This document shows positions 41,486 to 61,600 of a stretch of DNA of 64,000 nt, piece after piece. Position numbers and translations under genes: made by a program. The notes under the pieces are model-generated. The model was not told where the DNA came from and made no database searches. It was given only the letters and a program-made list of their open reading frames with translations. The stretch's first letter is position 1. Every line of letters begins with the position of its first letter. This DNA is from Spirochaetota bacterium. Lineage in GTDB: Bacteria > Spirochaetota > UBA12135 > COTS27. The stretch lies in the NCBI GenBank assembly GCA_965249715.1, contig CBDFMP010000047.1:51922-115921 (forward strand). Direction: 5' to 3'.

Positions 41486-41578
41486 CGTGATGCACTGATA
41501 CGCTTGCAGGATTATGCGTGCTGAGCCGCTGGTTTATACTGGGATGCAAGAGGGCTAAACTGACTGATGTAAGCCATT

Positions 41579-41720
41579 GGCAGTTGGCGCAGTTGGCAGT
41601 TGGCAGTTGGCAGTTGGCAGTTGGCAGTTGGCAGTTGGCAGTTGGCAGTTGGCAGTTGGCAGTTGGCAGTTGGCAGTTGGCAGTTGGCAGTTGGCAGTTG
41701 GCAGTTGGCAGTTGGCAGTG
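41579..41720. repeat. heptanucleotide microsatellite (GGCAGTT)n, about 20 units, one variant unit
   Basis: Near-perfect array in the 266-bp spacer between yejA and yejB. Confidence 0.95.
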
Positions 41721-41751
41721 TGGGGTATTGCTGTGAGGTATCCGTGTAAGC

Positions 41752-43719
41752 TTAGCGTGTGAAGGAGAACTGGGCACTGAGCGCACGAGCTTTTTCTGCA
41801 TCAATCCACCATGCGGTGAACGGCACGCCATAAGGCGGAGCTGTCTTGGGTTTGCCAAAGCGTTCCCAGTACAGGACGCGAAAAGAGGCAATGTACCATT
41901 GCGGGATAATGTAATGTTCCCAGCGCAAGATCCTATCCAAGGCACGCGTATGGGCTAGCAGCTCAGTGCGTGTACGGGTGGCAATCAGTTTTTCAACAAC
42001 TTCATCAATAACAGGATTTTGAATGCCGATGAGATTGCGCGACCCCGGTGTTTGTGCGGCTTGCGAGCTCCAGAAATCGCGTTGTTCGTTGCCCGGTGAA
42101 CTGGACTGACCAAATGTGCCGATGATCATATCAAAGTCAAATTTTTGCACAATATTCTCATATTGCGCAGTATTGATGGTGGCAACCTGAACCTTGATGC
42201 CCAATTTTTTCATATTTTGCACAAAAGGATTGACGATGCGTTCAAAGGCAGCGAGTACAAGGAGGATTTTAAATTCCATGCGCTTGCCGCTTGTGTTATG
42301 GACGCGCATGCCGTTTTGGACAGTCCAGCCTGCTTCATTGAGCAGGGCTGTAGCTTTACGTAGGTTCGCGCGGATATTGCCGGAGCCGTCTGTTTGTGGG
42401 GGCGTGTAAACCTGGGTGAAGACTTCATCGGGAATGCGCCCTTTATACGGCTTAAGGATTTTAAGTTCGGCGGGACTGGGCAGTCCTTTTGCCGATAACT
42501 CACTATTGTTGAAATAGCTGTTTGCGCGGGTGTAGGCATTGTAAAAAAGCACGCGGTTAGACCACTCAAAGTCAAACGCATAAGCTAATGCTGCGCGTAC
42601 ACGTCTGTCTTTGAAGATGTTTTTGCGGATATTGAAGACAAACCCCTGCACGCCTTGTGGATTTTTATCGGGAATAAGACTTTTTTTGAGCAGCCCGTTT
42701 TTGACGGCAGTAATATCGTAGCTGGTTGCCCAGGCCTTGGAATTGTTTTCGTTCAGAAAGTCAATTTTCCCGGAGCGCAGTGCTTCGCGGATGATGTCCA
42801 AACTCTTGTAGTAGTCGTAACGAATTTCATCAAAATTGTCAAAGCCTTTTTTGATCGGGACGTTGCGCCCCCAGTAGTCGGGCATACGTTCATAAGTAAT
42901 AGATTTACCAGGGCGCACATTTTTTATTTTATAAGGACCACTGCCTAGCGGCGCTTTTAAGGTGGTTTTACTGAAGTCGCGGGTGGCCCAATAGTGTTTG
43001 GGCAGGATCACCAATTGACCAAGGATGAGGGGGAGCTCGTGATTGGCTGTGGAGAAGTCAAAGCGCACCACGCGCGGGGCTGTTTGTGTGACACTTTTTA
43101 CATTTTTATAATAAACGCGATAAAACGGCGCGCCTTTTTCTACAAGCGCGTTAAATGTCCAGATCACATCGGCAGGTGTGACAGGTTTGCCATCATGCCA
43201 GCGCGCTTCTTTACGCAAGGTAAATGCCACCCAGCGCCGTGTATCGTCGTAATGAATACGCTCTGCCAGCAGTCCGTACTCGACGCTTTTTTCATCCAGC
43301 GTGCTAGCGGTGAGCGTATCGTAAATATTGCCGATGCCATCCCCGCTTTCGCCTTTAATAATAAACGGGTTCAGGTTATCGAAACTGCCCAATGCACCAA
43401 GTACTACTTTGCCGCCCTTGGGCGCATTGGGATTCACGTAAGCTAAATGTTTAAAATTGTCTGAATACTTCGGTTTGCCGTGTATGCTAACGGCATGCGA
43501 ACCGGTTTTGCTGCTTTGTGCCAGAAGGTTGAGACTTAGTAAGCTGAGTACAAGTAAGAGTGATTGCCAGAATAGTGCTGGCGGGTGTTTATCCGCTAAG
43601 CGACTGAATAGTTGAAAGGGAGTTTTAAATTTTATAATCATCTTGACCTTCTTTTGATAGTTTGACTTTTGAATTGTAAATGATTGTTGTTTGCACGGAG
43701 CAGTTTTAAGGTAAACCAA
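41752..43719 (-). CDS. yejA: ABC transporter substrate-binding protein, family 5 (YejA/OppA-like)
   Basis: 655 aa with a signal peptide. First gene of the yejABEF-like operon. Confidence 0.8.
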
Positions 43720-43742: not shown

Positions 43743-44684
43743 TTAGGGACTGCTGTTTTGTGCAGCAGCAGGTGTTTGTGTTTGTGTTTTGGAGTGAAAT
43801 GCACTGGGGGAGACAATCGCTTCACCGCGCAGGCGCAGGACAATTTGCGCGACCGCTAGACAGTCTTGCTCGCAATACTCGTAAATGTTTTGCATTGCCC
43901 GTTTATGGTAGTATAACTCGTGAATCATGCTTCCGTCCACTGATTCGGCTGTGCCTGTTGTTTTGGGCGATGGAAATTCCAATGTTTGCGCGATTAATTC
44001 CAATGAAGCGTAATTTTTTGTCCCCATAAACTTCCATAACTCCATTGTGTCCAAAAGCCAGTAAGTATTCCAAGGTTTCTTTTGCAACAGTTGCAATGCA
44101 GGCGGGAGCGTAAGTGCATGAATAATGCTGCGCCGACAGATAAAGGGGTAGTCAAAATTAAAACCATTGTGTGCACAAAGGTAAAAAGTCGATTTTCTTT
44201 CAAGAAGCTTATGGAACTGAGTGAGGATTGTTTTTTCATTATCCCCATAAAACGATTTGGCTAAAAACTTGTACGTGGCGGCGGCATTGTTTGATGAAGA
44301 GCTTTCTTCTGGAGTAAGATATCCCACCGAAATACAGACAATCTTTGCGAATTCACTGTGAATACCGGCTTCGGTTAAATAAAGCGCTTCTGCTACATTG
44401 GGCGGGACGATGGCATTGCGAGCTAGGTAATCACGGATAGCTTGTGCGGAGGCTGTGGGTTGCGGTACAGGGTTTAAGGCATTACGCAGCGCGGCATATT
44501 TGTTTTGAAATGCAATAAGTGAGGCAGCTTTTTTTTGCCAGCGTTTTTGGGCACTGCCGGTTAATTCATCAAATGCAGCCGCCTTTGCCACTGTTTCAAT
44601 GTCAATAAACAAGATCTGCTCAAGTTTGAGCTTGTTAAAATCATGATAATTGATGGGGTGATTCACGTTTTCAGCAGTAAACAA
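43743..44684 (-). CDS. predicted 3'-5' exonuclease, RNase H-like fold (PolB-exonuclease-related)
   Basis: 313 aa. LFIDIETVA (Exo I-like DxE), HNGFNFDYPFI and YCEQDCLAVAQI (YxxxD) motifs. It diverges from rpmH. Confidence 0.5.
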   Translation of the reverse strand: MFTAENVNHPINYHDFNKLKLEQILFIDIETVAKAAAFDELTGSAQKRWQKKAASLIAFQNKYAALRNALNPVPQPTASAQAIRDYLARNAIVPPNVAEALYLTEAGIHSEFAKIVCISVGYLTPEESSSSNNAAATYKFLAKSFYGDNEKTILTQFHKLLERKSTFYLCAHNGFNFDYPFICRRSIIHALTLPPALQLLQKKPWNTYWLLDTMELWKFMGTKNYASLELIAQTLEFPSPKTTGTAESVDGSMIHELYYHKRAMQNIYEYCEQDCLAVAQIVLRLRGEAIVSPSAFHSKTQTQTPAAAQNSSP

Positions 44685-44784: not shown

Positions 44785-44929
44785 AATGAAGAAAACCTAT
44801 CAACCCAAGCGTTTAAAACGAGCACGCAAGTTTGGCTTCAGGTGTAGAATGTTTAGCAAAAGCGGGCGTGCCATTATTAATGCACGAAGACGTAAAGGAA
44901 GACAAAGGCTCACATCTGCCGACGAATAG
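44785..44929 (+). CDS. rpmH: 50S ribosomal protein L34, reading frame broken by an apparent +1 indel near 44818-44822
   Basis: [12 protein letters not shown] is in frame 1 from the ATG at 44785. [35 protein letters not shown] continues in frame 2 and ends at the tag at 44927-44929. Together they give a canonical 47-aa L34. As written, frame 1 stops after 20 codons. Confidence 0.7.
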
Positions 44930-45284
44930 CTCCAAACAGCGCAATGGCCGTATTCATGCAAAGGACTACAAGCAACTTTTTGTTAACAGTAGGAAAATCT
45001 ATGCTGGTTATTGTGTTTTTTATTATAAGCAGCAGCAACTGGCTAAAGTAATTAAGGCATCTGCTAGTAAGAAATCTGGTAAAGCGCATCAAAGAAACTA
45101 TTACAAGCGTCGCATACGGCATATCTTGCGACTGCTTCCTCTGCGCCATGATGTTTTTTTGCTTGCAATTGTTCTAAAACCACATCGGATGGCTTTTAAT
45201 CATGAAAAAAGTTATTTGGCTAAGAAATTGCGACCTTTATTTAGCGAAAGCAAGTCAGTTTCTTATCAGGCTTTATCAATATAG
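44880..45284 (+). CDS. rnpA: ribonuclease P protein component
   Basis: [22 protein letters not shown] matches the RnpA K-K-x-x-x-A-V-x-R-N-R-x-K-R-x-x-R motif. The ATG at 44880 overlaps the rpmH 3' end by ~50 nt in another frame. Confidence 0.7.
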
Positions 45285-45456
45285 CTTAGCGCCGCATTTT
45301 CCGCCAACTTGTCGTTTTCTGCCCACCTGTTCTGCTTATGCTTATGAGGCTTACGGGACATGGGGCTTTTGCAAGGGATCTTATTTGGCGGTAAAGCGAA
45401 TCTTGGTATGTCATCCGTTTAGCAAACCGTGTGTAGATAATGTTCCGAAAGTTTGA
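45202..45456 (+). CDS. yidD: membrane protein insertion efficiency factor YidD
   Basis: 84 aa. [53 protein letters not shown] is the YidD signature. Overlaps the rnpA 3' end by 83 nt. Confidence 0.8.
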
Positions 45457-45773: not shown

Positions 45774-47585
45774 TTGGTGATAGAAACTGAGAATCGTTTT
45801 GACAAATTACGTTACCCCTTGGCGGTTGGGCTGTCAACGGGGATTATTTTATTATGGTATTTTGTTTATAGTCCTAACCCAAAGGTGCCCGAGGACGCAG
45901 GCGGCAGCAATGCTGAGACCAGCGAACAAACCGCAGCGCCTATGGCTGATGAACTGTTGCCAGAAGTAACATCAGCTGATGATGTGCTCTTAAACGATTT
46001 GCCGCAAGCGGCAACTGCAGCGGATACAGCGGTGCCGCTAAACGATGCTGTGGAAACGGTTGTTTTAAGTAATGCCGTGATGAAGTTGCAGTTCAGTACG
46101 GATGATGCTGTCGTCACAGCTGCTGAGGTTTTAAATGGTACGAATGAGGAGGCGCAAGCTGCTGGTGTTTGGAGTGAAGATTTTGAGGCAATGGGGCTGC
46201 CGGGATTTTTCACAGGTAAAGTGTTTTTTAGCGAAACCTTCCCCAGTCTAAGTAGTGCCAGCGTTCAACGAATCATTTACACTGTTGTGGCTGTAACGGA
46301 AAACAGCGTCACCATGCAAACACAGCTTAAAGGGCAGCGTGGGATTGTGACCGTTGAAAAATATTACGAACTCAACGATGCTTTTGAATTAAAACTGCGC
46401 ATTCGCTTCAGCGATGAGCAGGGACGCCCGGTGCGCGTGCCTTATCATGTGTTAAATGGTGCCAATTTAGGTGATGCGGCGGGTACGAAGAAAAGTCCTT
46501 TTGATATTAAACGTTTGTCTTATCAGCGTGGCAATGACAATGATACAATCCTCGATGCTTCATTTTTTGGCAGCGATCAGACTTTTAGCGAAATAACAGG
46601 CGCGGTGGATTGGTTGGCCTTGGATAATCGTTTTTACGCACGTGTGTTAAAAGCTGCTCAAGATGTTCAATTGGATAAAGCCGTTTTTGCTAAACGCAGT
46701 ACGGTGCAGTTCGATGGGCGTGAGGATTTTTATATGGCGGGAGCATTGCAGGTGAGCGGCGATGGCGACGATGAGTTTACGTTTTATTATTTCCCTAAAA
46801 ACCGTGCAGTATTAAATGATTATTATGAGCGGACGCAGGAACATTTCTTCAGCTTGTTTCATCAATTTTCGTTTATGCGTATTCTTTCTTCAATTATGTA
46901 TTGGTTATTGCAGCAGATTAACATTGTGTTGAACAGTTATGGTTGGTCTATTTTAGTGATGACAATCTTGGTGAAACTCGCAATCCTCCCGCTTACGCAC
47001 AGGGGGATGCGTTCAATGTACAGAATGCAGCAACTCAGTCCTAAACTTGAAGCAATTAAAGCACAATATAAGGCACATCCGCAAAAATTGAATGCTGAGA
47101 TGATGCTTTTGTACAGGAAAGAGAAAGTTTCTCCATTGGGGGGGTGTTTGCCAATGTTGCTGCCCATTCCTATTTTTATTGCATTGTACTCGTTATTTCA
47201 GAATATGGTGGAGTTGCGCGATGTTTCGTTTTTTTGGATCCGCGACCTTTCAATACCAGACACCATTTATAAATTTAGTTTTGATCTTCCGCTTTTGGGC
47301 AATGAGCTCAATCTTTTGCCAATCTTGATGACGACTACGGCTTTAGGGCAGGCATTATTGCCAAGCAGTCCTCAGCAGAGCAAAGCCAAACTAAGTAGTG
47401 CTTCGCCTACGGCACAGAGTATGCAGAAGCAGATGATGATGATGAAATATATTTTTCCGGTCATGTTCTTTTTTATTTGCTGGAATTTGCCGAGCGCCTT
47501 AGTCTTTTTTTGGACTATTCAAAATGTTTTTTCATTCTTTCAAGCTCTTTATACAAGAAAAGCTCTTAATTTTAGCGGAGGGTAA
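45774..47585 (+). CDS. yidC: membrane protein insertase YidC
   Basis: 603 aa. N-terminal TM, large periplasmic domain, then the conserved C-terminal five-TM core. Confidence 0.9.
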   Translation: MVIETENRFDKLRYPLAVGLSTGIILLWYFVYSPNPKVPEDAGGSNAETSEQTAAPMADELLPEVTSADDVLLNDLPQAATAADTAVPLNDAVETVVLSNAVMKLQFSTDDAVVTAAEVLNGTNEEAQAAGVWSEDFEAMGLPGFFTGKVFFSETFPSLSSASVQRIIYTVVAVTENSVTMQTQLKGQRGIVTVEKYYELNDAFELKLRIRFSDEQGRPVRVPYHVLNGANLGDAAGTKKSPFDIKRLSYQRGNDNDTILDASFFGSDQTFSEITGAVDWLALDNRFYARVLKAAQDVQLDKAVFAKRSTVQFDGREDFYMAGALQVSGDGDDEFTFYYFPKNRAVLNDYYERTQEHFFSLFHQFSFMRILSSIMYWLLQQINIVLNSYGWSILVMTILVKLAILPLTHRGMRSMYRMQQLSPKLEAIKAQYKAHPQKLNAEMMLLYRKEKVSPLGGCLPMLLPIPIFIALYSLFQNMVELRDVSFFWIRDLSIPDTIYKFSFDLPLLGNELNLLPILMTTTALGQALLPSSPQQSKAKLSSASPTAQSMQKQMMMMKYIFPVMFFFICWNLPSALVFFWTIQNVFSFFQALYTRKALNFSGG

Positions 47586-47590
47586 TTCCT

Positions 47591-48217
47591 ATGTTGTACG
47601 TAGATTATGAAGCAAACACAGTTGATGAGGCTGTGGTTAAGGCAGTTGAAAAACTGGGGGTCAATAAGGCGGATATCACGACGGAGGTTTTGCGCGAAGC
47701 CAAGCGGGGTATCTTTGGGATCGGGCAGAAGGCTCTTGCGAAAGTGCGCATTTATTACAAAGAGAAAAACGATATTGATGCAGTCTTAGCAAATGTAAAA
47801 GGATTGGTTATGCATTTGGATGAAGAGGCGAAAATCAATTTCCGTAAACTCTCAGAAACGCGCTACGATGTTGTCATCAATAGCCAAAATATTTCGCATA
47901 TGATCGGTAAAAAAGGGAAGACGCTTAAAGCTATGCAGACACTTGTGAATAGCTTTTTGCAGAAGTACAATAACCCCTGTAGTATTATTGTTGATATCGA
48001 TCATTACAATATGAAGCGCGAAGAACAGTTTTCACGATGGGCGGAAGGACAAGCGCGTGAGGTGTTGAAAACTAAACGTTCCATTGTTTTGAAGTCCTTG
48101 AATTCTTATGAGCGCCGAATTATTCACTTAGAAATTACAAAATTTAAGGATATCGTCTCAGAGTCCAAGGGAAAGGGGCGCATTAAAAACATTAAGATCA
48201 AGTACGTCGGCAGTTGA
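47591..48217 (+). CDS. jag: Jag/KhpB-like RNA-binding protein (KH + R3H domains)
   Basis: 208 aa. R3H-like YERRIIHLEI near the C-terminus. Conserved position after yidC. Confidence 0.8.
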   Translation: MLYVDYEANTVDEAVVKAVEKLGVNKADITTEVLREAKRGIFGIGQKALAKVRIYYKEKNDIDAVLANVKGLVMHLDEEAKINFRKLSETRYDVVINSQNISHMIGKKGKTLKAMQTLVNSFLQKYNNPCSIIVDIDHYNMKREEQFSRWAEGQAREVLKTKRSIVLKSLNSYERRIIHLEITKFKDIVSESKGKGRIKNIKIKYVGS

Positions 48218-48354: not shown

Positions 48355-49998
48355 TTGGGGGCGGGGGTGCCAATGGATGTTCTGACGCGTATGGACGCCA
48401 CCATCATCCAATTGCTTACCCCGCGTGCACCGGCGGCGGTGCATATTATCCGTCTTTCCGGGCAGGAAAGTCTTTCATTTCTACGCGCGCACACGCGTTT
48501 GCAGTCCAAGCTCAGTGCGCGGCGTATGTATTATACGCCGTTTTTTGCAGCGCCGCAGACAGCTGATGAAGTAGCTGGGGCTGTCCAAGCGCTCGATCAT
48601 ATTCTTTGTGTGTATTTTAACGCGCCTTATTCGTTCACGGGCGAAGCAGTGGTGGAATTGCATTTGCATGGCTCGCTTTTCATTGTAGATGAAGTGTTGC
48701 GTGCGGGATTGCGTGCGGGATTGCGGTTGGCAGAACGCGGTGAATTCAGCTATCGCGCATTTCTCAACGGCAAACTCACAAGCGAACAAGCTGAAGCTTT
48801 GGATGCACTGATCCATGCACGCAGTGTTTACACACATCGCAATGCCATTAACCTCCTCCAGCAGCAGAGCTCTTTTGCATTTGCTGACTTGCAGCATAAA
48901 TTATTGGCGATGCTGGCAACACTGGAGAGCGCGATTGAATTTCCCGAAGAAGACATTCCCGAGTTAGAGCTTGATAAAACAACACTTTACAGCCGTTATG
49001 AAAAACAATTGACCGAGCTGCAGCTGAGTTTTCAGCAGCTGCTTGCCAATTACCAACGCGGGCAAAAGTTGGAAGCGGGGCTCCGCGTTGTGATCCTGGG
49101 CGCGCCGAACGTAGGAAAATCCACCCTGCTCAATGTTCTATTGAATACCGAACGCGCTTTGGTCTCTGAACATGCAGGCACCACGCGTGATTACATTGAG
49201 GCGAACTTGGAGCTTGGCGGTACGCGTTTTATCCTCACAGATACCGCAGGACTGCGCGCAGCAGACGATGCAACAGAACGTGCAGGCATCGCCAAGACTG
49301 CTGAGGTGACCGCACACGCCGATGTTATCATTCTGCTGCTGGGTTTGACGGAAGGTTCAGGCGAGCAGCAATACGCTGAGCTGCGTGCGCAATGTGCCAC
49401 ATTGCTTGAGCTTGAGGAATTGAAGCTGGCGGAACGGGAAGCGATTGCCGCGCGCGCATCCAATGCTGCCGCTCCCCATGCAAAAGCCAATACACATCGC
49501 AATCATACAGGTGTGTTAGGCCTCAGTCCGCAGTTTTTGCTGTACTGGAACAAGTCCGATTTATGTCCAGCTGCTGTCTGGGATGAGTTATGTGTAAAAT
49601 TGCAAGCCGATGTTTCCTTTCAACGCCTCTTCCGCTTGGTACATTTAGTGGGGGGGATTGAGGCGCTGGACGTTAACCAGCGATTTTCATTGACACAGGA
49701 CGCAGCGGCAGCCATTGACAATGTGCAGGCAGCATTGCAACGCTGTGCAGTATCGATAAGCGGTGCGCGTGCTGATGGGCATTCCCTTGCCTTGCTCAAT
49801 GTCAGACAGGCGGCGATCACTGAGCGATTGCTCGCTGGTTTTGCGCGTGCATTGGAACTGGTGCGGGTGGGGGAGAGTGAGGAGATCTTAGCAGAGGAGT
49901 TTCGCACACTTGGCGACTACTTTAGCGAATTGGGGTTCTCTACCCACAATGAAAAACTTTACGATACGCTTTTTAAGCAGTTTTGTATTGGTAAGTGA
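48355..49998 (+). CDS. mnmE: tRNA modification GTPase MnmE (TrmE)
   Basis: 547 aa. G-domain GAPNVGKSTLLN, DTAGLR, NKSD. C-terminal FCIGK motif. About 35 extra Ala-rich residues lie between G3 and G4. Confidence 0.9.
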   Translation: MGAGVPMDVLTRMDATIIQLLTPRAPAAVHIIRLSGQESLSFLRAHTRLQSKLSARRMYYTPFFAAPQTADEVAGAVQALDHILCVYFNAPYSFTGEAVVELHLHGSLFIVDEVLRAGLRAGLRLAERGEFSYRAFLNGKLTSEQAEALDALIHARSVYTHRNAINLLQQQSSFAFADLQHKLLAMLATLESAIEFPEEDIPELELDKTTLYSRYEKQLTELQLSFQQLLANYQRGQKLEAGLRVVILGAPNVGKSTLLNVLLNTERALVSEHAGTTRDYIEANLELGGTRFILTDTAGLRAADDATERAGIAKTAEVTAHADVIILLLGLTEGSGEQQYAELRAQCATLLELEELKLAEREAIAARASNAAAPHAKANTHRNHTGVLGLSPQFLLYWNKSDLCPAAVWDELCVKLQADVSFQRLFRLVHLVGGIEALDVNQRFSLTQDAAAAIDNVQAALQRCAVSISGARADGHSLALLNVRQAAITERLLAGFARALELVRVGESEEILAEEFRTLGDYFSELGFSTHNEKLYDTLFKQFCIGK

Positions 49999-50101
49999 GC
50001 CACTAATGATTGAGCATGATGATCAATGATGCAGCTTGATTTATAGATTTTGGGTGGAATATGTTATAATGAGCTGCAAACTTTACACGAGGGGATGAAT
50101 A

Positions 50102-51838
50102 ATGGCAATTGGTAATGTTGATTTTAACGGTAATCATGATTTGGCAATGGTATTTCGTAATGGGGCTATTTATGATGTCCCATTTTTCCAACGCAGCTAT
50201 TCATGGGAAGCGGAGCAGTGGGAGGAACTATGGGAAGAGCTTGTCGCTTTATTAAACAAAGAAACGGATTATCATTACATGGGCTGTTTGGTACTGCAGC
50301 CCAGTCAGCGAGAGAAAAAAAAAGCATTTCGTATTATTGACGGTCAACAGCGTCTCGCAAGCTTTAGTATTATTATTCTTGCAGTACTCAGCCGCTTAAA
50401 TGCAATTATAAACGGACAAACCAATGATGCCGCAGCTGGAAATAAGGATCGTTTTGAAACGTTTGAAAAACAATATATTGGTTCAAAAGATCCCGTTAGC
50501 TTAGCATATTATACTAAGTTAAAACTTAATAAGGAAGATAATAATTTTTATTGCGATAGTCTGGTTCCGTTGAAAAAACCGGCATCAAGGTTTCCTAAGT
50601 CTTATTCACAACGTTTATTAGATAAAGCACTTAAATGGTTTGAACAAAAGCTGGAGGCACTGTACCAAAGTGACGGGGAAGCGTTGGCGAAATTTGTTGA
50701 AACCATTGCAGAAAAGACGTTTTTTACGGTTATTCAAGTTGATGATGAATCAGAGGCATTTGCTGTTTTCGAAACACTCAATGCACGCGGTGTTCAGCTG
50801 GCGCCAACAGATTTGCTAAAAAACTATTTGTTTTCAATAGTTAACAAGGAACCCGATACAACAGCTGCTAAAAAATATCTTAAAATAATGGAGGAAGCTT
50901 GGGAAGGTATGCTCAGTACACTTGGAGCTGATAAAGTCATGGACTTTATCAGAGCGTATTGGAATAGTAAACATGAATTGCCAAAGGGACGTAACTTATT
51001 TAAAACTATACGTCCTAAAGTTAAAATGCCCAAAGAGGCGTTTGATTTAGTCGCTGATTTAAAATTTAACGCTGGTATTTATGCTGTGTTAAGAAATCCT
51101 TATGATCGTAAGTGGGAGGATTTGGGTCAGAAAGATAAATTTGAAAAATATCTTAACGAATTAAAACTTTTTAGCAATATAAAACGGCCATTTCCGTTAT
51201 TATTAGCTGTTTATCGGAAGTATGCAGATACAGATGTCAATAAGCTTTTAACCTTTTTAAGATATGTTAGTATCATTACGTTTCGTTATAATGTCATTTG
51301 TGGTCTTGAGACGCGAGAACAGGAAGCTGTTTACAATAAAGCAGCACTAGCAGTTAATGAAAATAACTTAGACGATGCAAAAAGATATTTGCGAACATTA
51401 TATGGTAAAGTAGAAGATTCCACTTTTAAAGAGGCATTTTCAACGAAAGATATTAAGCGTGAAAAAATGACTAAATATATTCTTGCTGAATTAGAAAAAG
51501 ATGAGAGCGAGGGGCAAGGGAACTTTGAAGTTCCTGCTAGTGTTACGGTTGAGCATATATTTCCTCAGGGAGACACGCATTGGGATGACTGGCCAGCTAG
51601 TCCTGATTTAAAAGAGCATATCTTTCGTTTGGGTAATCAGACCTTGCTAGATGCCGGCGATAATCGAAACTTGGATAATAGTTCTTATGATAATAAAAAA
51701 GCTGTGTACCGCAACTCTCAATACAAGCTCACTTCTTCAATCCCCGATGAATTTCCTGAATGGAACGTTGAAAACATTAATGCACGTCAAAAAAATATGG
51801 CTAAACGTGCCGCTCAGCTCTGGCGCATCGACTTTTAA
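50102..51838 (+). CDS. GmrSD-like DUF262 (ParB-like, DGQQR) plus DUF1524 (His-Me finger) nuclease, a type IV restriction-like defence protein
   Basis: 578 aa. N-terminal FFQRSYSWE and IIDGQQRLAS motifs. C-terminal EHIFPQ and GNQTLLDAGDNRNLDNSSYDNKK (H...N...N) motifs. Own promoter-like tataat at 50065-50070 and an SD gagggga. Confidence 0.8.
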   Translation: MAIGNVDFNGNHDLAMVFRNGAIYDVPFFQRSYSWEAEQWEELWEELVALLNKETDYHYMGCLVLQPSQREKKKAFRIIDGQQRLASFSIIILAVLSRLNAIINGQTNDAAAGNKDRFETFEKQYIGSKDPVSLAYYTKLKLNKEDNNFYCDSLVPLKKPASRFPKSYSQRLLDKALKWFEQKLEALYQSDGEALAKFVETIAEKTFFTVIQVDDESEAFAVFETLNARGVQLAPTDLLKNYLFSIVNKEPDTTAAKKYLKIMEEAWEGMLSTLGADKVMDFIRAYWNSKHELPKGRNLFKTIRPKVKMPKEAFDLVADLKFNAGIYAVLRNPYDRKWEDLGQKDKFEKYLNELKLFSNIKRPFPLLLAVYRKYADTDVNKLLTFLRYVSIITFRYNVICGLETREQEAVYNKAALAVNENNLDDAKRYLRTLYGKVEDSTFKEAFSTKDIKREKMTKYILAELEKDESEGQGNFEVPASVTVEHIFPQGDTHWDDWPASPDLKEHIFRLGNQTLLDAGDNRNLDNSSYDNKKAVYRNSQYKLTSSIPDEFPEWNVENINARQKNMAKRAAQLWRIDF

Positions 51839-51860
51839 TACTTAATATTCATCATTCACC

Positions 51861-53813
51861 ATGCGATACAACTTCGACGTCGTTGTTATTGGGGCGGGAC
51901 ATGCAGGGCTGGAAGCCGCGCTGGCTGCTGCTAAATTAGGACAGTCAACCGCGCTGATCACCATCAATACCGATCACATTGTTTATATTTCCTGCAATCC
52001 GTCGATTGGCGGCTTGGGGAAAAGCCATATTGTCAAGGAGCTGCACGCCCTAGGGGGTGCAATGCCCGCACTCGCCGATCGCTCCGCTCTGCAATATAAA
52101 CTACTCAATAAATCGAAAGGCATGGCTGTTTGGTCATTGCGCGCGCAGATTGATAAATATCAATATTCCCGCTGTGCAAGTGATGCTGCTCTTTCCTGTC
52201 CCAAGCTTCAAGTCATCCAGGATCGCATTGACGAGCTGATTATTGATAAAAGCGGGGGAGGCAAGACAACCGCGCGTGTCCTGGGAGCAGTGGGGGAGCG
52301 CGGCACGGAATACCGTGCTCAGGCTGTCATCCTTGCTACCGGCACTTTTCTTGGCGGGAAGCTTTACATTGGCGACCACACCATACAGGGGGGGCGCCTT
52401 GGCGAGCTCAGCTCCACCAAGCTGGCGGCAGCACTCAAACAGTTTAACTTTAAGCTGGAACGATTGAAGACTGGGACTCCCGCGCGGGTACATAAGGATA
52501 GCATTGACACAACAGAGCTGGCCGTGGAGTGGGGCGATAACGATGAACCGTTGGCATTCACCGATGATTTCTCACTCAATCAAAACCCGCGCCTGCCGTG
52601 TTACATCACCTACACCAATGAAGCCACGCACGCTGTCATTCGCAACAATAAGGCGTGTTCGCCGATTTATTCAGGAAGCATTACCGGTACAGCGCCGCGT
52701 TATTGTCCATCCATTGAGGATAAGGTCTTTCGTTTTGCAGGAAAAACCAGCCACCAACTTTATTTGGAACCTGAAAGCGCGCACACAAAAGAAGTTTACA
52801 TTAATGGTCTCTCATCCAGTATGCCTGAGGACGTCCAATACGCTATGCTCCGTACCATTAAAGGTTTGGAGCAAGTGCGTGTGATCAAACCTGCCTATGC
52901 CGTAGAATACGATTACATTGAACCGACGCATATGCGGCATACATTGGAAAGCAAGCTGATTGCGGGGCTTTATTTTGCGGGACAAGTTAACGGTACATCG
53001 GGTTATGAAGAAGCTGCCGGTCAAGGGTTTATGGCCGGGGTCAACGCTGCCCGTAAAATTGCCGGTGCTGAGCCCTTCACGCTCAGTCGCACTGAAAGCT
53101 ACATTGGTGTCATGATAGACGATTTGGTCCTTAAAGGTGTGCGTGAACCTTATCGCATGTTCACCTCGCGTGCCGAACATCGCCTTTCGCTGCGTTTGGA
53201 TAATGCCGATCTTCGCCTCTTGCATTATGGTGTTCACTTAGGACTGGTGAATGCCGAGCGTGAAGCTGCGTTTAAGGAGCGCTTAAAAACATTGAAAACG
53301 CTTAAACAGCAACTTGCCGTGACAACACTGCCTGCTGATGAGCTTGCCGCCTGTTATGGCGATACGGCGTTGCCCGAGCATAAACTTTCCTATTTGCTTA
53401 CACGCGGAGATACTCCTTTTAGTAAATTACTGAGGCTCAGCGCCCCCCTGCTGCAACCCAACTTCAGCACCGCCTCCCCCGCCAGTAAAGCCCAACTCCT
53501 TCGCAATCTCAGTACCGCCGCTTGTGATATTAAATATCAAGGCTACATTTCCAAACAAGCCAAAGAACAAGCACGCCTGCACAAACACCTCAACCATAAA
53601 CTTCCGCATGGCTTTGATTATGCTGCCATCAGTAGTCTTAAATTAGAAGCGCGTGAAAAGTTACAGTGCATTCAGCCGTGTACACTGCTGGAAGCCTCGC
53701 GCATTCCCGGTGTTAAATCCAGTGATCTGGAAATTCTCCTCTGGACCCTCACCAAAGCTCGTCGCAATAAACCCGCTGCCGCCGCAACGTCCATCGCAAA
53801 ATCCAATAGCTAA
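51861..53813 (+). CDS. mnmG: tRNA uridine 5-carboxymethylaminomethyl modification enzyme MnmG (GidA)
   Basis: 650 aa. N-terminal FAD-binding [23 protein letters not shown] and GidA-typical blocks throughout. Confidence 0.95.
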
Positions 53814-54091: not shown

Positions 54092-57000
54092 ATGAAAATT
54101 ACTGATTTTATAAGCTTAAAAAGTGCGTTACTTTTACCTCTTGCATTTACTGCGTGCAGTGTTGCCGATGATGCCAGCATACGCACGCTCACATTTGAAG
54201 AAATGTTAGAACCTGCAATCACTCTCACCGATGCTAACGGGGAAGAGTTTTTCGGCGCTTCTGTCAATATTGAGTTTAATGACGATACGACTGGCGAGTC
54301 TACGGACGGCACTATTTTCGTTAACGGTTTTACGAATGTTTGTTCCAATCCGCCCTGCACGGACGCTGAGCTGCAGGAGCCCATCGGCCGCCTTACCATT
54401 ACTGGAATGTCCGATACTTTTACCCTCGCAGAGGACGCAGCAAGTAATGTCATCGACATACCTGATCAGGAAGGCGCTGCCAGCATCTCAGGTAACTTAG
54501 GCAACATTGTCATCACACGCACAAGTGACAAGGCGCTCCGCACCTATGCTGTCATTGTTCAGTACAGTGGGACGCTTGTCACTGAAATTGTCGACAATGC
54601 CGGAGGCTTTGTGAATGTCATTTCCCCAGCTATGGCACCTATGGCTAGCGCTACTTTGGGCTACCAAGCGACAACAACTGCTGTATGGGACGAAGAGGTA
54701 TTAGTCGTCACTGATATGGTGAACCTACCCGGTGATACCGCAATGGGAACGGTTTCTGTTACTGCCAGCGAACTTCCTGCTGGCTACTATGTCATGCCTT
54801 ACACCTATACCGACCCTGCCGGCACAAAGGCTGTCGCACTTATGGGTACACTTACCATTGCTGAAGGCGATGAAAATACACTAAGCGTAGCTTATGAGAA
54901 CCAAGCTTCTTACGACAACCTGCGCATTGAGCTAACTGAAGCGCCTGATCTTGCAATCACTCCCCAAGACCTGATCATCTCAGTAACGAATACGCTCAAC
55001 AACGATATCGTCCTTGACGCTGGGCACTTCGTTATTAATTACAACCATTTTACCGTTACCATCACTGACGCTACTATTTTTCACAATTTAAACGGAGCTG
55101 AGTTAAGTTTAAGCAGTGGTTCGCTTAGCCTTAGCGGAACAGAAAATAGCGCTTTTGATATTGATGCCGCAAATATAACTACCGTGTTTACGGATCCCAT
55201 CGGTACTGAAGCTATCACTACCAACCTCAATACTTTCAGCGTAACAAAAGATGCTATTTCTATTGACTACTCGCTTTATTTGACGTTTGCAAGTACTTAT
55301 AACTTCGAGCTGGATAGTGAGGTCATTGCTGACATGGAAACAGGTGTATCCGCTCCTTTTGTTATTGCAGCTTGCGATAACCCAACCAGCTCTATCTTCA
55401 CTATCGCCACTGACGGCACGACCAACTATTTTGCTAATGTGAGCGGACGTGTTAATTATTATTATAATAGCGCGATAGATGCTAATAACACCAATACCAT
55501 TGTCCTTACGGCTGATGATGGCAGTAGTTTGGATTTTACAGGAGCCATTGCTGTACAGAAGTGCGACAGTTTTGCAGGCGGCGATGGCAGCGCTGGCAAT
55601 CCCTGGCAAATTGATAACGATATGCAATTAGACCTTATGAGCCGCCTCATTAATAATGATGATGCCGCTACAGCTACATATAGTGACTACGGCGATGATG
55701 CCTACATCCTCACTGCGAACATCGATATGAGCATTCCCGAAGCGCCATGGGCAGAAGGTAGTTTGCACCCCAATGCAAATACAAACGGCTTCATACCCAT
55801 TGGCAAGAGTGTTAATCCTATCGGACTCTCAGTCTCACATCAAAGCAACAGCTTCAAGGGACAGCTGAACTGTGAGGCTAACAACACCCGCTATGCTATT
55901 GCGAATTTATACATTAACAATACAAATGACACTGCAGCTGAGAATACTGAGGGAGTTTTTATCGGTCTTTTCAGCGTTCTCACTAATGGCGCTGTGATTA
56001 CAAACTGTACATTGGAAAATGCTTCTATAACTGGATACCAAATTGTAGGAGGCATAGCAGGATATGCGTATAGTTCAAATAATGAGAATATTAGTATTGG
56101 AAGTAATATCGTTGCCAATAGTAGTATCACGGCTAATAGTAGCCGCGTAGGCAGTATTGTGGGAGTTATTTATAGTGTACAAAACAGCAGCATTGTTATC
56201 AGCAGCAATGCCGTTACAAATGGCAATGTTTCAACTGGCAATAGCTACGCAGGCGGCATCATAGGAGCTTCCACTAGTTCAGGCACCAGTACTAATACTA
56301 TCAGTGGCAATACCGTTACTGATGGAAGTATCACGGCTGACAATGACAACGCAGGCGGCATCACAGGGTATGTGGCTAGTTCCGGTGGTAATACTATTGT
56401 CAGCATGAATACTGTTACTGGCGGTAGCGTCACGGTAAACGATGATAACGCAGGCGGCATTGTGGGATATATTCATAGTTCACAGGACGCAAACAGTACC
56501 ATAAGCGGTAATACTGTTGCAAACGGCAATATCACCGCTAGCAACAATTTCGTAGGCGGTATTGCAGGATATATGTATAGTGGAGAGAGGGGCGGCGGCA
56601 CCCTCAGTAATAATGTTGTTACAAATGGCACCATCAGCGTAAGCTTCTATGATGCAGGCGGCATTGCAGGAGTGATGTATAGCACATCCTTTGGCAGCAA
56701 TGCCCTCAATGACAACGTCGTTACAAATAGCAGCATCACAGCTGATAATACAGCAGGCGGCATTGTGGGAGATGTGTATAGTTTAGAAGATGGCAGCAAT
56801 ATCATCAGCACGAATAACATTAGTGGCGGTAGCATCACGGCTAACATAAGCAACGCAGGCGGCATCGTGGGATTTATGTATAGTGAAAATGCCAGCAAGA
56901 GCAATGTCATCAATGCCGCGTTTGCCGCCACAACCATTACTGCCAGCAATGGAAACGCCGGCGGAGTAGTCGGGTACATTCTTCAGGGAGGCATCACTAA

Positions 57001-57445
57001 CAGCTTTTTTATGGGAACCATTAGTGCTGATAGCGGTACAGTTGGCGGTGTCGTGGGTTTTGTGACCGATACCACGTCCACTATCACCAACTCTTATGCG
57101 GCGGCAATTGTAACGGGTATTCCTGATACTAGCTATGGATTGGTGCCCACCAGCGTTACGGTCAACCATAGCTACTACAATAGCACATTGCACACAGGCG
57201 CAGCCGACAGTGCTGAGGGAACAGTCGCGCAAAGCCATGACGTGCTGCGATACCCCAGGGGCAGTAGAGGCATTTATGCGAACTGGGATGAAGCCAGTTG
57301 GGATTTCGGCACTGACGATCAGTACCCCATGCTGAGAGGATTGCCACTTACGGCTTCCGAGCAGTGCGGAGTTGCCGATGCTGCGCTTACCAGTGTGACG
57401 TTTAACTGTGGAACGGGTACGGGCGATACTGGTTACGATGATTAA
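54092..57445 (+). CDS. giant surface lipoprotein with an N-terminal Cys-x-x-Pro-Pro-Cys module and ~13 tandem GLUG-like 29-aa repeats
   Basis: 1117 aa. Lipobox LAFTAC-S. N-terminal module CSNPPCTDAE...IPDQEGA is paralogous to modules in 58617..63817. Repeats have consensus N-x-V-T-N-G-x-I-T-A-x-N-x-N-A-G-G-I-V-G-Y-x-Y-S. Ends ...NCGTGTGDTGYDD. Confidence 0.7.
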   Translation: MKITDFISLKSALLLPLAFTACSVADDASIRTLTFEEMLEPAITLTDANGEEFFGASVNIEFNDDTTGESTDGTIFVNGFTNVCSNPPCTDAELQEPIGRLTITGMSDTFTLAEDAASNVIDIPDQEGAASISGNLGNIVITRTSDKALRTYAVIVQYSGTLVTEIVDNAGGFVNVISPAMAPMASATLGYQATTTAVWDEEVLVVTDMVNLPGDTAMGTVSVTASELPAGYYVMPYTYTDPAGTKAVALMGTLTIAEGDENTLSVAYENQASYDNLRIELTEAPDLAITPQDLIISVTNTLNNDIVLDAGHFVINYNHFTVTITDATIFHNLNGAELSLSSGSLSLSGTENSAFDIDAANITTVFTDPIGTEAITTNLNTFSVTKDAISIDYSLYLTFASTYNFELDSEVIADMETGVSAPFVIAACDNPTSSIFTIATDGTTNYFANVSGRVNYYYNSAIDANNTNTIVLTADDGSSLDFTGAIAVQKCDSFAGGDGSAGNPWQIDNDMQLDLMSRLINNDDAATATYSDYGDDAYILTANIDMSIPEAPWAEGSLHPNANTNGFIPIGKSVNPIGLSVSHQSNSFKGQLNCEANNTRYAIANLYINNTNDTAAENTEGVFIGLFSVLTNGAVITNCTLENASITGYQIVGGIAGYAYSSNNENISIGSNIVANSSITANSSRVGSIVGVIYSVQNSSIVISSNAVTNGNVSTGNSYAGGIIGASTSSGTSTNTISGNTVTDGSITADNDNAGGITGYVASSGGNTIVSMNTVTGGSVTVNDDNAGGIVGYIHSSQDANSTISGNTVANGNITASNNFVGGIAGYMYSGERGGGTLSNNVVTNGTISVSFYDAGGIAGVMYSTSFGSNALNDNVVTNSSITADNTAGGIVGDVYSLEDGSNIISTNNISGGSITANISNAGGIVGFMYSENASKSNVINAAFAATTITASNGNAGGVVGYILQGGITNSFFMGTISADSGTVGGVVGFVTDTTSTITNSYAAAIVTGIPDTSYGLVPTSVTVNHSYYNSTLHTGAADSAEGTVAQSHDVLRYPRGSRGIYANWDEASWDFGTDDQYPMLRGLPLTASEQCGVADAALTSVTFNCGTGTGDTGYDD

Positions 57446-58432
57446 TACCCAACGTACATAACCCTTGCTTTTGCGGGGACGCGGGGCATAGTGGGGAAGG
57501 CTTGCCATGCTCCGCCTGTTAATGTTTTTAATTGCCGTTGCCCATAAAATCAGCGGCGGCGGCTTTTTCTTCCAGCAGCTCACGGCGGGTGGCGTTCAAC
57601 TTCTTCTGAGCAAGGGTGTCATGGGCACTGGCAGCGGATGAAGAGCCGCGCGCCTTGAATGAGCGTTGCGCCGCCGTTGCTGAACATTGTCGATAAACTC
57701 GCCGCGCAGCCAGCTTTCGTTGTCAATGACAGTCGTGACGGGTTTCGTGTCAATGGTGCCGGTGCTATTGGCAAACTATTGGCAAAATCGAAAAATTGGG
57801 TGCTGGAATGCCAGTAGCTGGGATTTCGGCGCTAATGACCAGTACCCCATGCTGAGAGGACTGCTGCTTACAGCTTCAGAGCAATGCCAAGCCGCGGATG
57901 CTGCGCTTACCAGTGTGACACTTAACTGTGGAACAGGTACGGGCAATACTGGCTACGATGAGTAAGGCACACTAAAACTCACCGCGCCGCTTGCGGGAAC
58001 GCGGGGCATAGTGGGGAAGGCTTGCCATGCTCCGCCTGTTAATGTTTTTAATTGCCGTTGCCCATAAAATCAGCGGCGGCGGCTTTTTCTTCCAGCAGCT
58101 CACGGCGGGTGGCGTTCAACTTCTTCTGAGCAAGGGTGTCATGGGCACTGGCAGCGGATGAAGAGCCGCGCGCCTTGAATGAGCGTTGCGCCGCCGTTGC
58201 TGAACATTGTCGATAAACTCGCCGCGCAGCCAGCTTTCGTTGTCAATGACAGTCGTGACGGGTTTCGTGTCAATGGTGCCAGTGCTATTGGCAAACTATT
58301 GGCAAAATCGAAAAATTGGGTGCTGGAATGCCAGTAGCTGGGATTTCGGCACTGACGATCAGTACCCCATGCTGAGAGGATTGCCACTTACGGCTTCCGA
58401 GCAGTGCGGAATTTCCAATAGCTAAGCTTGTA
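57446..58432. repeat. two ~520-bp tandem units, each a ~290-bp segment of unknown origin plus a copy of the last ~55 codons of the lipoprotein gene. The array ends in a 26-bp copy of the mnmG 3' end
   Basis: C-terminal copies at 57800-57965 and 58320-58405; genuine at 57280-57445. tccaatagctaagcttgtacaagttc occurs at 53801-53826 and at 58407-58432. ORF-track 57687..57965 and 58207..58425 are the copied fragments. Confidence 0.75.
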
Positions 58433-58616: not shown

Positions 58617-61600
58617 TTGATTATGAAATTCACTCAAACAACTTCAACAAAACACTTCACCCCGCCCAAAAAAATACCTAAATTTGTTTTTGCTTTCCTC
58701 ATAAGCATCTTATTCTCCGTTTTCACGGCATGTACCACCGCCGATGACAGCACTTCCACTCGCTTAACGTTTGAACGGGCATTGGATGACGCTATCGCAC
58801 TTAACAATGTTGACGGCAGTAGCTCACTTCAGGGTGCTATTGTTCGCTTTGAGCATACAACCAATGATAACGGTGAAACCACCGGCGATGGTACTATTAT
58901 TATTGAAAATATCACCAATATCTGCTCCAGCCCGCCTTGTGGGGTTGCTGAAACTGCCGATATCGGTACGCTTGTGCTGTCTTATAATGACAATTCTTTT
59001 ACCATCGCCAATAATCCAGCTTTCACCATTACTGACACAGCAGCTTCCCTGTCTATCCCAGACCAAGACGGCGCTGTTGCTGCAAGTGTTACATTAGCTA
59101 CCATTACCATCACCAGGAACAGCGATGCAATGGACTTCAACTACGACATTATCGCCGATTACAATGGAACTCCTGTCGCTAATATTATTAATGCCATTGT
59201 CTCCACTCCTGCTGATATTACAAAAATTATCAATGCCACCTTTGATGCTGTTGAACTGGAAGCAACCTTAGATGCTGCTTCCGCTACTATCGCCCTCAGC
59301 GGCATCAACCGCGTCAATGGCAGCGGTGTTATCAGCATTAATGACAACGACGACGGCACGCTCCCAGCTGGCTTCGCGGTCACTAAACCTGACGGCACAG
59401 CTTACACTTTCGCCGATCCCGATGATGCCGACATTACCAATTATGACGCCACCCCGCTAGCTGAAGGCATGCTGAGCATTGCTGAACGTGTGGATAATGG
59501 CGACGGCACCTTCGGCGATGTTGTGGGCGGCAATGAAGCCAGGTTCACGGTTACATTCGCCTTAGCCGAACTCAGCGGCTTCGGTAAAACTTTCCTCAGC
59601 ATCGCTGACCCAGACGGTAATGACCTCAACGGTTATGACATCACCGTGACAACAAACGACGCCACTACTGGTACCATTGCCATTAGCGGTCTTATAAATG
59701 CCTGTGCCACGCCGCCCTGTATGAACGCAGGAGGCGCCATCGGTACACTCATCTTTACTAAAGAGAATGCCGCTTTCATCATTACTGCCGATGGAGACTT
59801 CATCGACGCCGGTACAACCGTCACCCGTAGTGTCCCCGACCAGGACGGTGCCGGCGCTATAGCAGCTGTTGCCTTGGGCAACATTACTATCTCTAACATT
59901 GATGACGCTGATGAAATCAGCTATGCCGTTACTGCCACTTACACAGGCACACCCGTTAATGACATCATTGCCAACGCAGCAGGCGGCATCGCTGACCTCA
60001 TCACCGCTACGTTTACTTACGGTACTTTCACCAGTCAAACACTCACCCCAAGTTTGAACGCCGAGTTTGATACCATCACCCTTGCAGGTACCAATACCTA
60101 CTCGGGCACAGGCGCTATCAATGGCATTGACACTGTCCTCCCAGCTGGTTTCACCGTCTCCACCCCAGACGACACGGACTTTACTTTCAGCGACCCCGAT
60201 GATGGTGCCATCACTGAAACCAATGCCACCTTAACTACATCGCTCACCATTGCTGAAACGGGTACGGATAACAGCAATGATTACAGCATTATGCTGGACT
60301 TAGCCGCACTCACCTTGTTTGATGAAACGTTCCTCAGTCTCAATGACGCTGACGGCAACACCGTCACCGCTGATAATGCCATCATCGTAGCCACAACTGA
60401 AGACCCTGACCCAGCTGTCAGCTCAGGCGCCATCACGCTTAGTCAAATCACAAACTTGTGTACCGCCCCGCCCTGCAGTGATGCTGAATCGGATGCTGTT
60501 GTCGGTACGCTCATTCTTACTAAGGATAACGCTTTTAGCTGTTGCGTTCAGCGCCACTTTCAGCCGATGACGACACCACCGCCACACTCAGTCTCCCCGA
60601 TCAAATTGGTGCGACAAATACAAACGTTGATTTTGCTGCTGCAACCAATATCACCATCACGCGCGGCGATAATGCTGTCATCACTTATACCCTCAGTGCC
60701 GCTTACAGCAGCACTGCTGTCGCTGACATCATTGCCAATGCCGTAGGCGGCGTGCCTGCCCTTATTAAGGCTACATTCAGTGGACGTGACCTCATTGCCG
60801 AGCTCAGCGCTGACGGCAGCACCATCGCACTCAGCGGCACCAATGCCGCAACACCCGTCGACGCCGACCCCCCAGCAGGTGCCATTAACGCCAGCAGCAT
60901 GCTCCCAGCTGGCTTCTTCGTCACTAAAATTGACGGCACAGCTTATACAGCTTATACCTTTGCTGACCCTGACAATGAAAATACCAACGATTATCTCGCC
61001 ACTACGCTGACTGAAGGCATGCTGAGCATTGCTGAACGCGCGGATAACGGCGACGGCACCTTCAGCGATGCTGTGGGCGGCAATGAAGCCACTTTCACGG
61101 TTACACTTGCCTTAGCTGAACTCTTAGAACTTAACCAGGTAAATTTTAGCATCAATGCCCCAAGCGGCACTCCGCTTGGCACGGATGTTTATTCCATTGA
61201 CGTGACAATAAACGATGACGCCACCGCCACCGGCACCATCGCTATTAGCGGTCTGACTAATGCCTGTGCCACGCCGCCCTGCATGAACGCAGGTGATGCC
61301 ATTGGCACGCTCGTTCTCACTAAAGATGCCGCCGCTTTCACCATTACTGCCGATGGAGACTTCACCAATGACACCGACACCGCCACCGCCACCCTCAGTA
61401 TCCTAGACCAGGACGGCGCCGGCGCTGCAGCAGCTGTTACCTTGGGGAACATTACCATCTCTAACCAAGGCGCTGATGAAATCACCTATACCGTTACTGC
61501 CACTTACACAGGCACACCCGTTAATGACATCATTGCCAACGCAGCAGGCGGCATCGCTGACTTCATCACCGCTACGTTTACTTACGGTACTTTCCCCAGT

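Follow-up and report, generated by a model that had tools for sequence, protein, structure and literature searches.

A divergent HEC-06-type nuclease gene in what looks like a variable defence slot between mnmE and mnmG of a spirochaete

Introduction

HEC-06 (Hma-embedded candidate 06; PADLOC models PDLC04154-04157) is a GmrSD-like protein that on its own protects E. coli, and the substitutions Q79A, R80A, E471A, and H472A abolish defence (Payne et al, 10.1101/2024.01.29.577857). It has been described as working independently (10.1101/2024.04.04.588119), and HEC-06_Bact, a 22%-identical homologue, stops T-even phages but lets through T4-GT7, whose cytosines are unmodified (10.1101/2025.02.28.640651). 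Here we describe a gene of this type at positions 50102-51838 of a 64,000-nucleotide stretch of DNA from a Spirochaetota bacterium (contig CBDFMP010000047.1; the whole stretch is called the window below), where it lies between the housekeeping genes mnmE and mnmG. The gene itself is ordinary: it adds one more, highly divergent protein to a known family with experimental validation and does not define a new kind of system. What is new is the variability of the junction, at which three genomes hold three different cargoes.

Other described proteins share this architecture. DndI of Salmonella enterica Cerro 87 (PDB 9JFL), whose gene was formerly called orf5 (PMC4198939), is a nickase with an ATPase activity that is stimulated by host phosphorothioate; this stimulation frees DndI from self DNA, and the protein is toxic when phosphorothioate is missing (PMC11662687). 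Like the window protein, DndI has two domains, a DGQQR motif, and an HNH/His-Me nuclease, it is of similar size (596 against 578 amino acids), and the two superpose over the whole chain with a template modelling (TM) score of about 0.70. It differs in that it is encoded beside dndBCDE/dndFGH, whereas the window gene has no dnd neighbours, and the two proteins are only 19% identical. SspE (PDB 6JIV/7DRR) likewise joins DUF262 to DUF1524, gives the second-best fold matches, and aligns in the nuclease motif region (residues 479-538 of the window protein); however, it is longer (~770 amino acids), its matches are partial (TM 0.31-0.47; ~1e-17 with hidden Markov models, HMMs), and it needs ssp phosphorothioation genes, none of which were found in the window. 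GmrSD/Eco94GmrSD, TgvAB, and BrxU carry the same pair of Pfam domains and the motifs QR, DGQQR, FxxxN, and H...N...N, and the logic proposed for them, a nuclease gated by nucleoside triphosphate (NTP) that acts on hypermodified phage DNA, may be common to the window protein. TgvAB consists of two proteins and BrxU is associated with BREX, and the window gene is found in neither context; PADLOC and Pfam screens found no BREX genes in the window.

The likeness to HEC-06 covers size (578 amino acids against a model of 569 positions), the DUF262-linker-DUF1524 layout common to both, and the apparent single-gene organisation. Judged by motif identity, residues Q83/R84 and E484/H485 of the window protein are equivalent to Q79/R80 and E471/H472 of HEC-06. 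The differences are that the window gene sits inside a housekeeping operon and not in an Hma or restriction-modification cluster, that its lineage is very divergent, and that its nuclease motif reads EHIFP in place of EHICP.

Results

The gene encodes an intact, divergent member of the HEC-06 family

The gene (50102-51838; like all window coordinates below, on the + strand unless marked otherwise) starts with ATG and encodes 578 amino acids, and reading of the sequence revealed no frameshifts or internal stops. The original prediction had recognised a DUF262 domain with DGQQR and FQR motifs joined to a DUF1524 nuclease domain with an EHIFPQ...N...N signature. Indeed, both domains score well above their cut-offs in Pfam: GmrSD_N (PF03235) matches residues 18-244 (1.3e-33; 117.2 bits against 33.2) and GmrSD_C (PF07510) matches the C-terminal part (7.3e-20; 71.7 bits against 23), so that these profile searches place the protein within the nuclease family. 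The N-terminal DUF262/ParB-like NTPase-sensor domain (residues 18-244; 50153-50833) is followed by an all-alpha linker or core of about residues 253-437 (50858-51412; DSSP assigns helices at 253-468 of the predicted model) and by the DUF1524 His-Me finger nuclease domain (residues 438-568; 51413-51805), which was delimited with Pfam GmrSD_C.

Using the published definitions of QR, DGQQR, and FxxxN as DUF262 motifs (10.1101/2024.04.04.588119), we read these motifs directly as FQR at residues 29-31, the NTP-hydrolysis motif DGQQR at residues 80-84 (50339-50353), and FETLN at residues 223-227; all three are invariant in an alignment of 64 family members. In the nuclease domain, EHIFPQ spans residues 484-489 (51551-51568), and the EHIFP portion (484-488; 51551-51565) holds the putative catalytic Glu-His pair at the end of strand beta-1. 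Downstream lie N512 (51635-51637) and N521 (51662-51664). Within the same alignment E484, P488, N512, and N521 are invariant, and H485 is conserved at the level of at least 90%. The window protein retains 83 of the 83 invariant positions at only 40-44% identity, which argues for an active protein under purifying selection.

The predicted structure agrees with these assignments. The AlphaFold2 (AF2) model is confident (predicted local distance difference test 86.7, predicted TM-score 0.77), and it comprises an alpha/beta N-domain and a long helical core. The expected beta-beta-alpha arrangement of a His-Me finger is present at residues 481-524, with a first strand (481-485) that ends in H485, a second strand (513-517) with N512 just ahead of it, and a helix (518-524) that carries N521.

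Among PADLOC models the best match, first of 32, is HEC-06 PDLC04154 (4.5e-176), which aligns residues 11-577 with profile positions 11-567 of 569. The SspE and mREase_IV models match only partially (~1e-17), the latter over the N-domain only (1.1e-17), and a search of NCBIfam returned no model matching the protein. The original assignment to GmrSD/BrxU/SspE-type proteins therefore needs refinement: the protein is GmrSD-like and stand-alone, as proposed, but its family is HEC-06 and the nearest solved structure is DndI, not GmrSD, BrxU, or SspE. BrxU was considered as the nearest relative and rejected, being recovered neither by Foldseek (E up to 10) nor by the family profile run against PDB sequences. 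That profile gave as its second-best match (2.8e-18) PDB 20yv/20yw, an 818-amino-acid 'DUF262 domain-containing protein'.

The family is large, with 1,046 clusters at 50% identity when E <= 1e-30 and 7,534 when E <= 1e-10. Word-indexed matches to the window protein are 38-44% identical and come from many phyla, and among ~15 billion proteins it is the sole member of its own 50%-identity cluster, the nearest representative being 47% identical.

The mnmE-mnmG junction holds different cargoes in related genomes

The gene is flanked on the left by mnmE (48355-49998; Pfam TrmE_N, MnmE_helical, and MMR_HSR1, and TIGR00450 above its cut-off) and on the right by mnmG (51861-53813; TIGR00136 7.8e-223, Pfam GIDA 9.2e-148). 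Alignment with five relatives shows that the C-terminus of the window MnmE is intact, ending in ...FCIGK. The lineage is thinly sampled, with the closest MnmG among the ~15 billion proteins only 66% identical, and we compared the junction in the relatives available, given below with their MnmG identity.

In five of them mnmE directly abuts mnmG: L015 (MnmG 56% identical; gap of 6 nt), L016 (55%; 47 nt), L023 (55%; 8 nt), L001 (51%), and L008 (41%). Two others hold cargo that differs from that of the window. L013 (AP019861.1, Spirochaetota; 66%) carries orf170, encoding 170 amino acids, together with an ABC-ATPase/DUF4276 pair that matches HEC-01 (3.8e-130 and 1.5e-37). L022 (57%) carries a type II restriction-modification pair, an N6_N4 methyltransferase with a HinfI-type restriction endonuclease; the open reading frame upstream of this cargo is MnmE and ends in FCIGK. 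The question raised with the original prediction, whether relatives have mnmE adjacent to mnmG, is answered in the affirmative for these five, and an ortholog of the nuclease conserved at this position across the lineage is not what we see.

The three occupied junctions belong to one clade in a neighbour-joining tree of MnmG, in which the window and L013 group with bootstrap 100 and L022 joins them with 75. The same three genomes have in common an insertion in the G-domain of MnmE that is not present in L015, L016, or L023, whose junctions are empty. It lies between the G3 region and the NKxD motif (G4), at about residues 335-395 of the window protein; the corresponding mnmE genes are at L013:3009-4856 and L022:335-1861. 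The L013 MnmE has further inserts, whereas the L015, L016, and L023 proteins are 464-485 amino acids long. The window MnmE falls below the NCBIfam NF003661 cut-off while it passes TIGR00450.

All three cargoes are in operon orientation and are AT-rich compared with their flanks. The L013 insert has a guanine plus cytosine (GC) content of 0.32 against 0.41-0.42 in its flanks, and the L022 restriction-modification genes have 0.31-0.33 against 0.43-0.45. Apart from orf170, the cargo consists predominantly of defence genes: HEC-06, the HEC-01 pair, and the N6_N4_Mtase with its HinfI endonuclease. From these comparisons the junction looks like a variable, reusable defence slot in this spirochaete clade. 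Three independent insertions or replacement at one ancestral insertion would both fit the pattern, and both imply a preferred slot. The original description of a single-gene defence islet holds in that the window gene stands alone; it is not a one-off, being one of three alternative cargoes at a clade-specific slot.

Two further observations concern these loci. In L013, a second and diverged HEC-01-like pair (AAA_15/21 ATPase and DUF4276; L013:12511-14576) lies ~2.5 kb downstream of mnmG, where it follows a Methyltransf_30 gene and a lactate/malate dehydrogenase gene. A 1075-amino-acid protein from a Joint Genome Institute (JGI) metagenome, P0154, has MnmE and MnmG domains in one chain, with an MnmG part 49% identical to that of the window; this may be a genuine fusion or else a gene call that reads through, and is consistent with the tight mnmE-mnmG adjacency of the relatives.

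The gene appears to have been acquired horizontally

With a GC content of 0.371 and a third-position GC (GC3) of 0.301, the gene has the lowest values among the open reading frames of the window; the means of the 40 other genes are 0.477 and 0.464, corresponding to z-scores of -2.84 and -2.82. Homologues at 36-41% identity are found on plasmids of cyanobacteria and of Alpha-, Beta-, and Gammaproteobacteria. Taken together, the low GC and GC3, the isolation from a nearest relative at 47% identity, and the plasmid-borne family members suggest horizontal acquisition. We also considered phages as the vehicle; this candidate was set aside for want of supporting evidence, as phage records hold only distant homologues that are at most 29% identical.

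The cassette carries a promoter-like element and no detectable terminator

A 103-nt AT-rich leader (49999-50101; GC 0.369) precedes the gene as part of the inserted cassette and holds both a promoter-like element and a ribosome-binding site. The former is an extended -10-like element, TGTTATAAT (50062-50070), and the string TGNTATAAT occurs only there in the window, counting both strands; the latter is a Shine-Dalgarno-like GAGGGG (50089-50094) that ends 7 nt before the ATG. A strict scan for -35 and -10 boxes found no full sigma-70 promoter ahead of the gene and no -35 box matching TGTTATAAT, and the totals of the promoter and terminator scans over the window were not above those in shuffled sequence. 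The prediction that the gene has its own -10-like element and Shine-Dalgarno sequence is accordingly right about the two elements, but they do not amount to a complete sigma-70 promoter. In L022, the leader of the restriction-modification cargo (L022:1865-2021) contains an extended -10-like TGCTATAAT shortly ahead of the methyltransferase start, in parallel with TGTTATAAT in the window, so each cassette seems to carry its own promoter-like element.

On the downstream side, only 22 nt (51839-51860; GC 0.273) separate the gene from mnmG. Since the scan found no terminator-like hairpin in either intergenic gap flanking the gene, and because the distance to mnmG is so short, mnmG is now probably transcribed by read-through across the inserted gene.

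Partner genes are not found in the window or beside close homologues

The original prediction reported no partner genes (methylase, dnd, ssp, or brx), and our screens agree. PADLOC and Pfam searches of 37 other open reading frames of the window (25 of 31 Pfam families listed) found no methyltransferase, dnd, ssp, or brx gene, and no Dnd, PAPS_reduct, or DndB-type match; they gave generic ABC-ATPase matches only. Two PADLOC models, 'mad3' (2.1e-56) and 'mad8' (6e-21), were examined as candidate partners and rejected: both hits come from a peptide transporter's tandem ABC ATPase (37616-39283, - strand), and these defence models are likely falsely positive on ordinary ABC transporters.

Four close homologues lie on long contigs, and none of them has dnd or ssp genes within 10 kb. 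Their contexts are varied: the first has AddAB-like genes beside it, the second is part of a conflict-system neighbourhood, the third is alone between a tRNA synthetase and a prepilin peptidase gene, and the fourth adjoins an HEC-01-like pair, a methyltransferase, and a helicase. The best-scoring word-indexed match, P0002 (42% identity), lies in a defence island (L020:10001-16636). Before it come genes for a HigB-like toxin and a Peptidase_M78/HTH protein, and directly after it an HEC-01-like ATPase/DUF4276 pair, followed by an N6_N4 methyltransferase and a ResIII helicase. Thus the two kinds of cassette found as alternatives at the spirochaete slot, HEC-06 and HEC-01, adjoin each other elsewhere. 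A homologue on a Salmonella plasmid is likewise stand-alone and sits beside an IS110 element. A stand-alone mode of action is favoured by these contexts over phosphorothioate sensing.

The housekeeping block and its surroundings

The original prediction described a block of rpmH-rnpA-yidD-yidC-jag-mnmE-mnmG that is broken by one gene, and Pfam and NCBIfam searches bear this out, with rpmH assigned by reading. The block begins with rpmH (44786-44929; ribosomal protein L34, 47 amino acids), followed by rnpA (44832-45284; RNase P protein, Pfam Ribonuclease_P 6.7e-12), whose real start is probably downstream of the listed TTG. Next come yidD (45202-45456; Pfam YidD 7.7e-23), yidC (45774-47585; Pfam 60KD_IMP 1.6e-52), and jag/khpB (47591-48217; Pfam Jag_N, KH_KhpA-B, and R3H).

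The prediction also placed the gene near the replication origin, and this we do not see: the window contains no dnaA, gidB, or parAB, its DnaA boxes are scattered without forming a cluster, and its skew changes sign in the wrong direction. GC skew on the + strand is positive from position 1 to ~52 kb whatever the orientation of the genes, near zero at 52-58 kb, and clearly negative after 58 kb; by the usual convention such a switch from plus to minus is terminus-like, not origin-like. In L023 the order is dnaA-rnpA-yidC-jag-mnmE-mnmG-gidB-parA-parB, whereas in the window a peptide transporter and a divergent gene for a 3'-5' exonuclease lie ahead of rpmH, and the gene after mnmG encodes an 1117-amino-acid repeat protein.

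The exonuclease gene (43743-44684, - strand), divergent from rpmH, is predicted to encode a PolB-like enzyme (DNA_pol_B_exo2, RNase_H_2) and takes the place held by dnaA in L023. Next to it is the peptide ABC transporter operon, in which the tandem ATPase gene mentioned above is accompanied by genes for two permeases and an SBP_bac_5 protein (39280-43719). The 1117-amino-acid protein (54092-57445) contains numerous degenerate repeats that end in ...AGGI(V/A)GY, and Pfam gives no match to it at E <= 1e-5. A copy of its C-terminal 53 residues, 79% identical, occurs in a 92-amino-acid open reading frame ~240 nt downstream (57687-57965), which is possibly a gene fragment or a variation cassette. 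Further on, two + strand open reading frames of 709 and 1091 amino acids (58617-60746 and 60542-63817) overlap by ~200 nt; they also have no Pfam match at E <= 1e-5, and GC skew is strongly negative where they lie.

Discussion

A probable horizontally acquired anti-phage nuclease and its rivals

We think it probable that the gene was acquired horizontally and that its product acts against phages as a single-protein nuclease, belonging to the HEC-06 branch of the GmrSD-like (DUF262 + DUF1524) family and following a proposed type IV logic. By analogy with characterised relatives, the N-terminal ParB-like DUF262 domain would bind DNA and hydrolyse NTP through DGQQR; hydrolysis would gate the C-terminal His-Me finger nuclease (E484/H485, N512, N521), which would then nick or cleave invading DNA. 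The likeliest target would be phage DNA with hypermodified bases, and under such a type IV logic the host would need no partner methylase. Modification dependence of this kind is the most likely logic, though another is possible. The gene lies in the mnmE-mnmG interval in operon orientation and has its own -10-like element, and mnmG is probably read through.

Several observations weigh against this reading. A test of relative synonymous codon usage (RSCU) distance does not single out the gene, because short genes dominate this statistic; the comparison of local composition suggested with the original prediction is thus mixed, with GC and GC3 as outliers (z about -2.8) and RSCU distance unremarkable. 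Modification dependence has been demonstrated only in a distant homologue, HEC-06_Bact. The PADLOC 'Orf5' model PDLC02687 is a close second to HEC-06 (9.7e-159), a label explained by orf5 being the old name of dndI. In Foldseek searches of the PDB, DndI 9JFL is far ahead of all other matches (TM 0.71/0.70, E 3e-18), followed by SspE, and the family profile run against PDB sequences also ranks DndI first (3.8e-33 over the full length), then the 818-amino-acid DUF262 protein, then SspE. The logic of DndI is the reverse of type IV, in that its target is unmodified DNA and host phosphorothioate holds it back. Our screen for dnd and ssp genes spans 64 kb of a 229-kb contig, and such genes may lie elsewhere in the genome. 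Finally, the slot is defined by three occupied and five empty junctions in distant relatives (MnmG at most 66% identical).

These observations raise the question of whether the protein is instead a phosphorothioate-sensing effector like DndI or SspE, which would attack unmodified DNA and be released from self by marks that dnd or ssp genes elsewhere in the genome confer. The fold and profile matches to DndI, its shared DGQQR and HNH layout, and its similar size all speak for this. Yet when the N-domain of 9JFL is itself run through PADLOC, its best match is a different Orf5 model, PDLC02701 (2e-135), to which the window protein fits poorly (4.4e-48 over the full length and 5.4e-31 for the N-domain alone, against 4.5e-176 for HEC-06); it therefore belongs to an HEC-06/PDLC02687 sub-family that is sister to authentic DndI, in keeping with the low identity between the two. 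The lack of dnd and ssp genes in the window and around the four homologues points the same way, as does the fact that HEC-06 works alone in phosphorothioate-free E. coli, whereas DndI is toxic without phosphorothioate. We judge phosphorothioate sensing unlikely, and do not rate it lower because only 64 kb of the 229-kb contig is visible. More improbable still, to the point where we give it very little weight, is that the gene rides along as a passenger, inactive or decaying, or that it now has a role outside defence, such as providing a promoter or read-through context for mnmG. It is the sole known copy of a highly diverged protein, at most 47% identical to anything, and transcripts running across it are now probably needed for mnmG to be expressed; however, the open reading frame is full length and undamaged, the family HMM matches it end to end, every invariant family residue is kept including the catalytic motifs, and the structure is confidently predicted.

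A separate alternative concerns how the gene arrived and not what it does: site-specific recombination at the 3' end of mnmE may once have brought in an integrative element that has since decayed, leaving the gene as its remaining cargo. In Gammaproteobacteria the integration site of SGI1 variants is the last 18 bp of trmE (= mnmE) (PMC8409611, PMC6531882), and the left boundary of the slot falls at this site, with all three inserts beginning directly after the mnmE stop codon. In L013, moreover, a ~210-nt degenerate repeat (~76% column identity; L013:4842-5060 and 5823-5992) consists of the last ~25 nt of mnmE and the spacer that follows; its two copies bracket orf170, the second just ahead of the HEC-01 ATPase, and it resembles an att-type or duplication scar left as cassettes were inserted one after another at the mnmE 3' end. 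Unlike SGI1, though, the window lacks an integrase gene, att repeats, and mobility genes. Pfam and Rfam searches found no integrase or tRNA at the junction (the Rfam scan found no RNA element near it, the only two tRNAs of the window being at 2.7-3.0 kb), there are no direct or inverted repeats bounding the gene, and no second copy of the mnmE 3' end occurs in the window, where the best match has 7 mismatches in 18 positions and is no better than in shuffled sequences. The left and right boundaries of the window insert have no exact word of at least 8 nt in common, no stretch of DNA or boundary motif is common to the three inserts, and the L013 repeated element is not in the window. Even in L013 the match to the 18-nt end alone is marginal, with 4 mismatches, a score equalled by 7% of shuffles. 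We regard a decayed integrative element as doubtful, although less so than the two functional alternatives; the simplest alternative to site-specific integration is that the gene entered by homologous recombination through the conserved genes on either side.

Implications of an apparent defence slot inside a housekeeping operon

The junction resembles defence hotspots flanked by core genes in that conserved core flanks enclose alternative defence cargoes in related genomes. It differs in that its cargoes comprise one to three genes, in operon orientation and within a transcription unit, and in belonging to an uncultured Spirochaetota clade. The interest of the gene lies in two things, namely a slot with three cargoes inside a deeply conserved operon and the closeness of HEC-06 to DndI.

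As to the latter, HEC-06 and DndI lie close together in both sequence and fold and their PADLOC models overlap, while their characterised members follow opposite self/non-self logic. A model name or a domain pair alone cannot tell an attack on modified DNA from one on unmodified DNA, and genomic context is needed. The window protein would be a useful test case for what determines the switch between HEC-06 and DndI logic.

As to the former, the slot is a compact natural example, in a poorly studied phylum, of a defence site flanked by core genes, with three different cargoes in one of the most conserved gene blocks of bacteria, and searches for new defence genes in Spirochaetota could be anchored on the mnmE-mnmG junction. 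We tentatively raise a bolder possibility, which we hold with much less assurance than the nuclease reading itself: that the junction is an integrase-free, operon-embedded cassette-exchange slot, where short AT-rich HEC-06, HEC-01, and type II restriction-modification cassettes are swapped in operon orientation without terminators and mnmG is read through the cargo, and that the window protein may have a new DNA-modification specificity within the HEC-06/DndI branch. If this were true, the retention and expression of a defence gene would be tied to a housekeeping operon through the read-through of mnmG.

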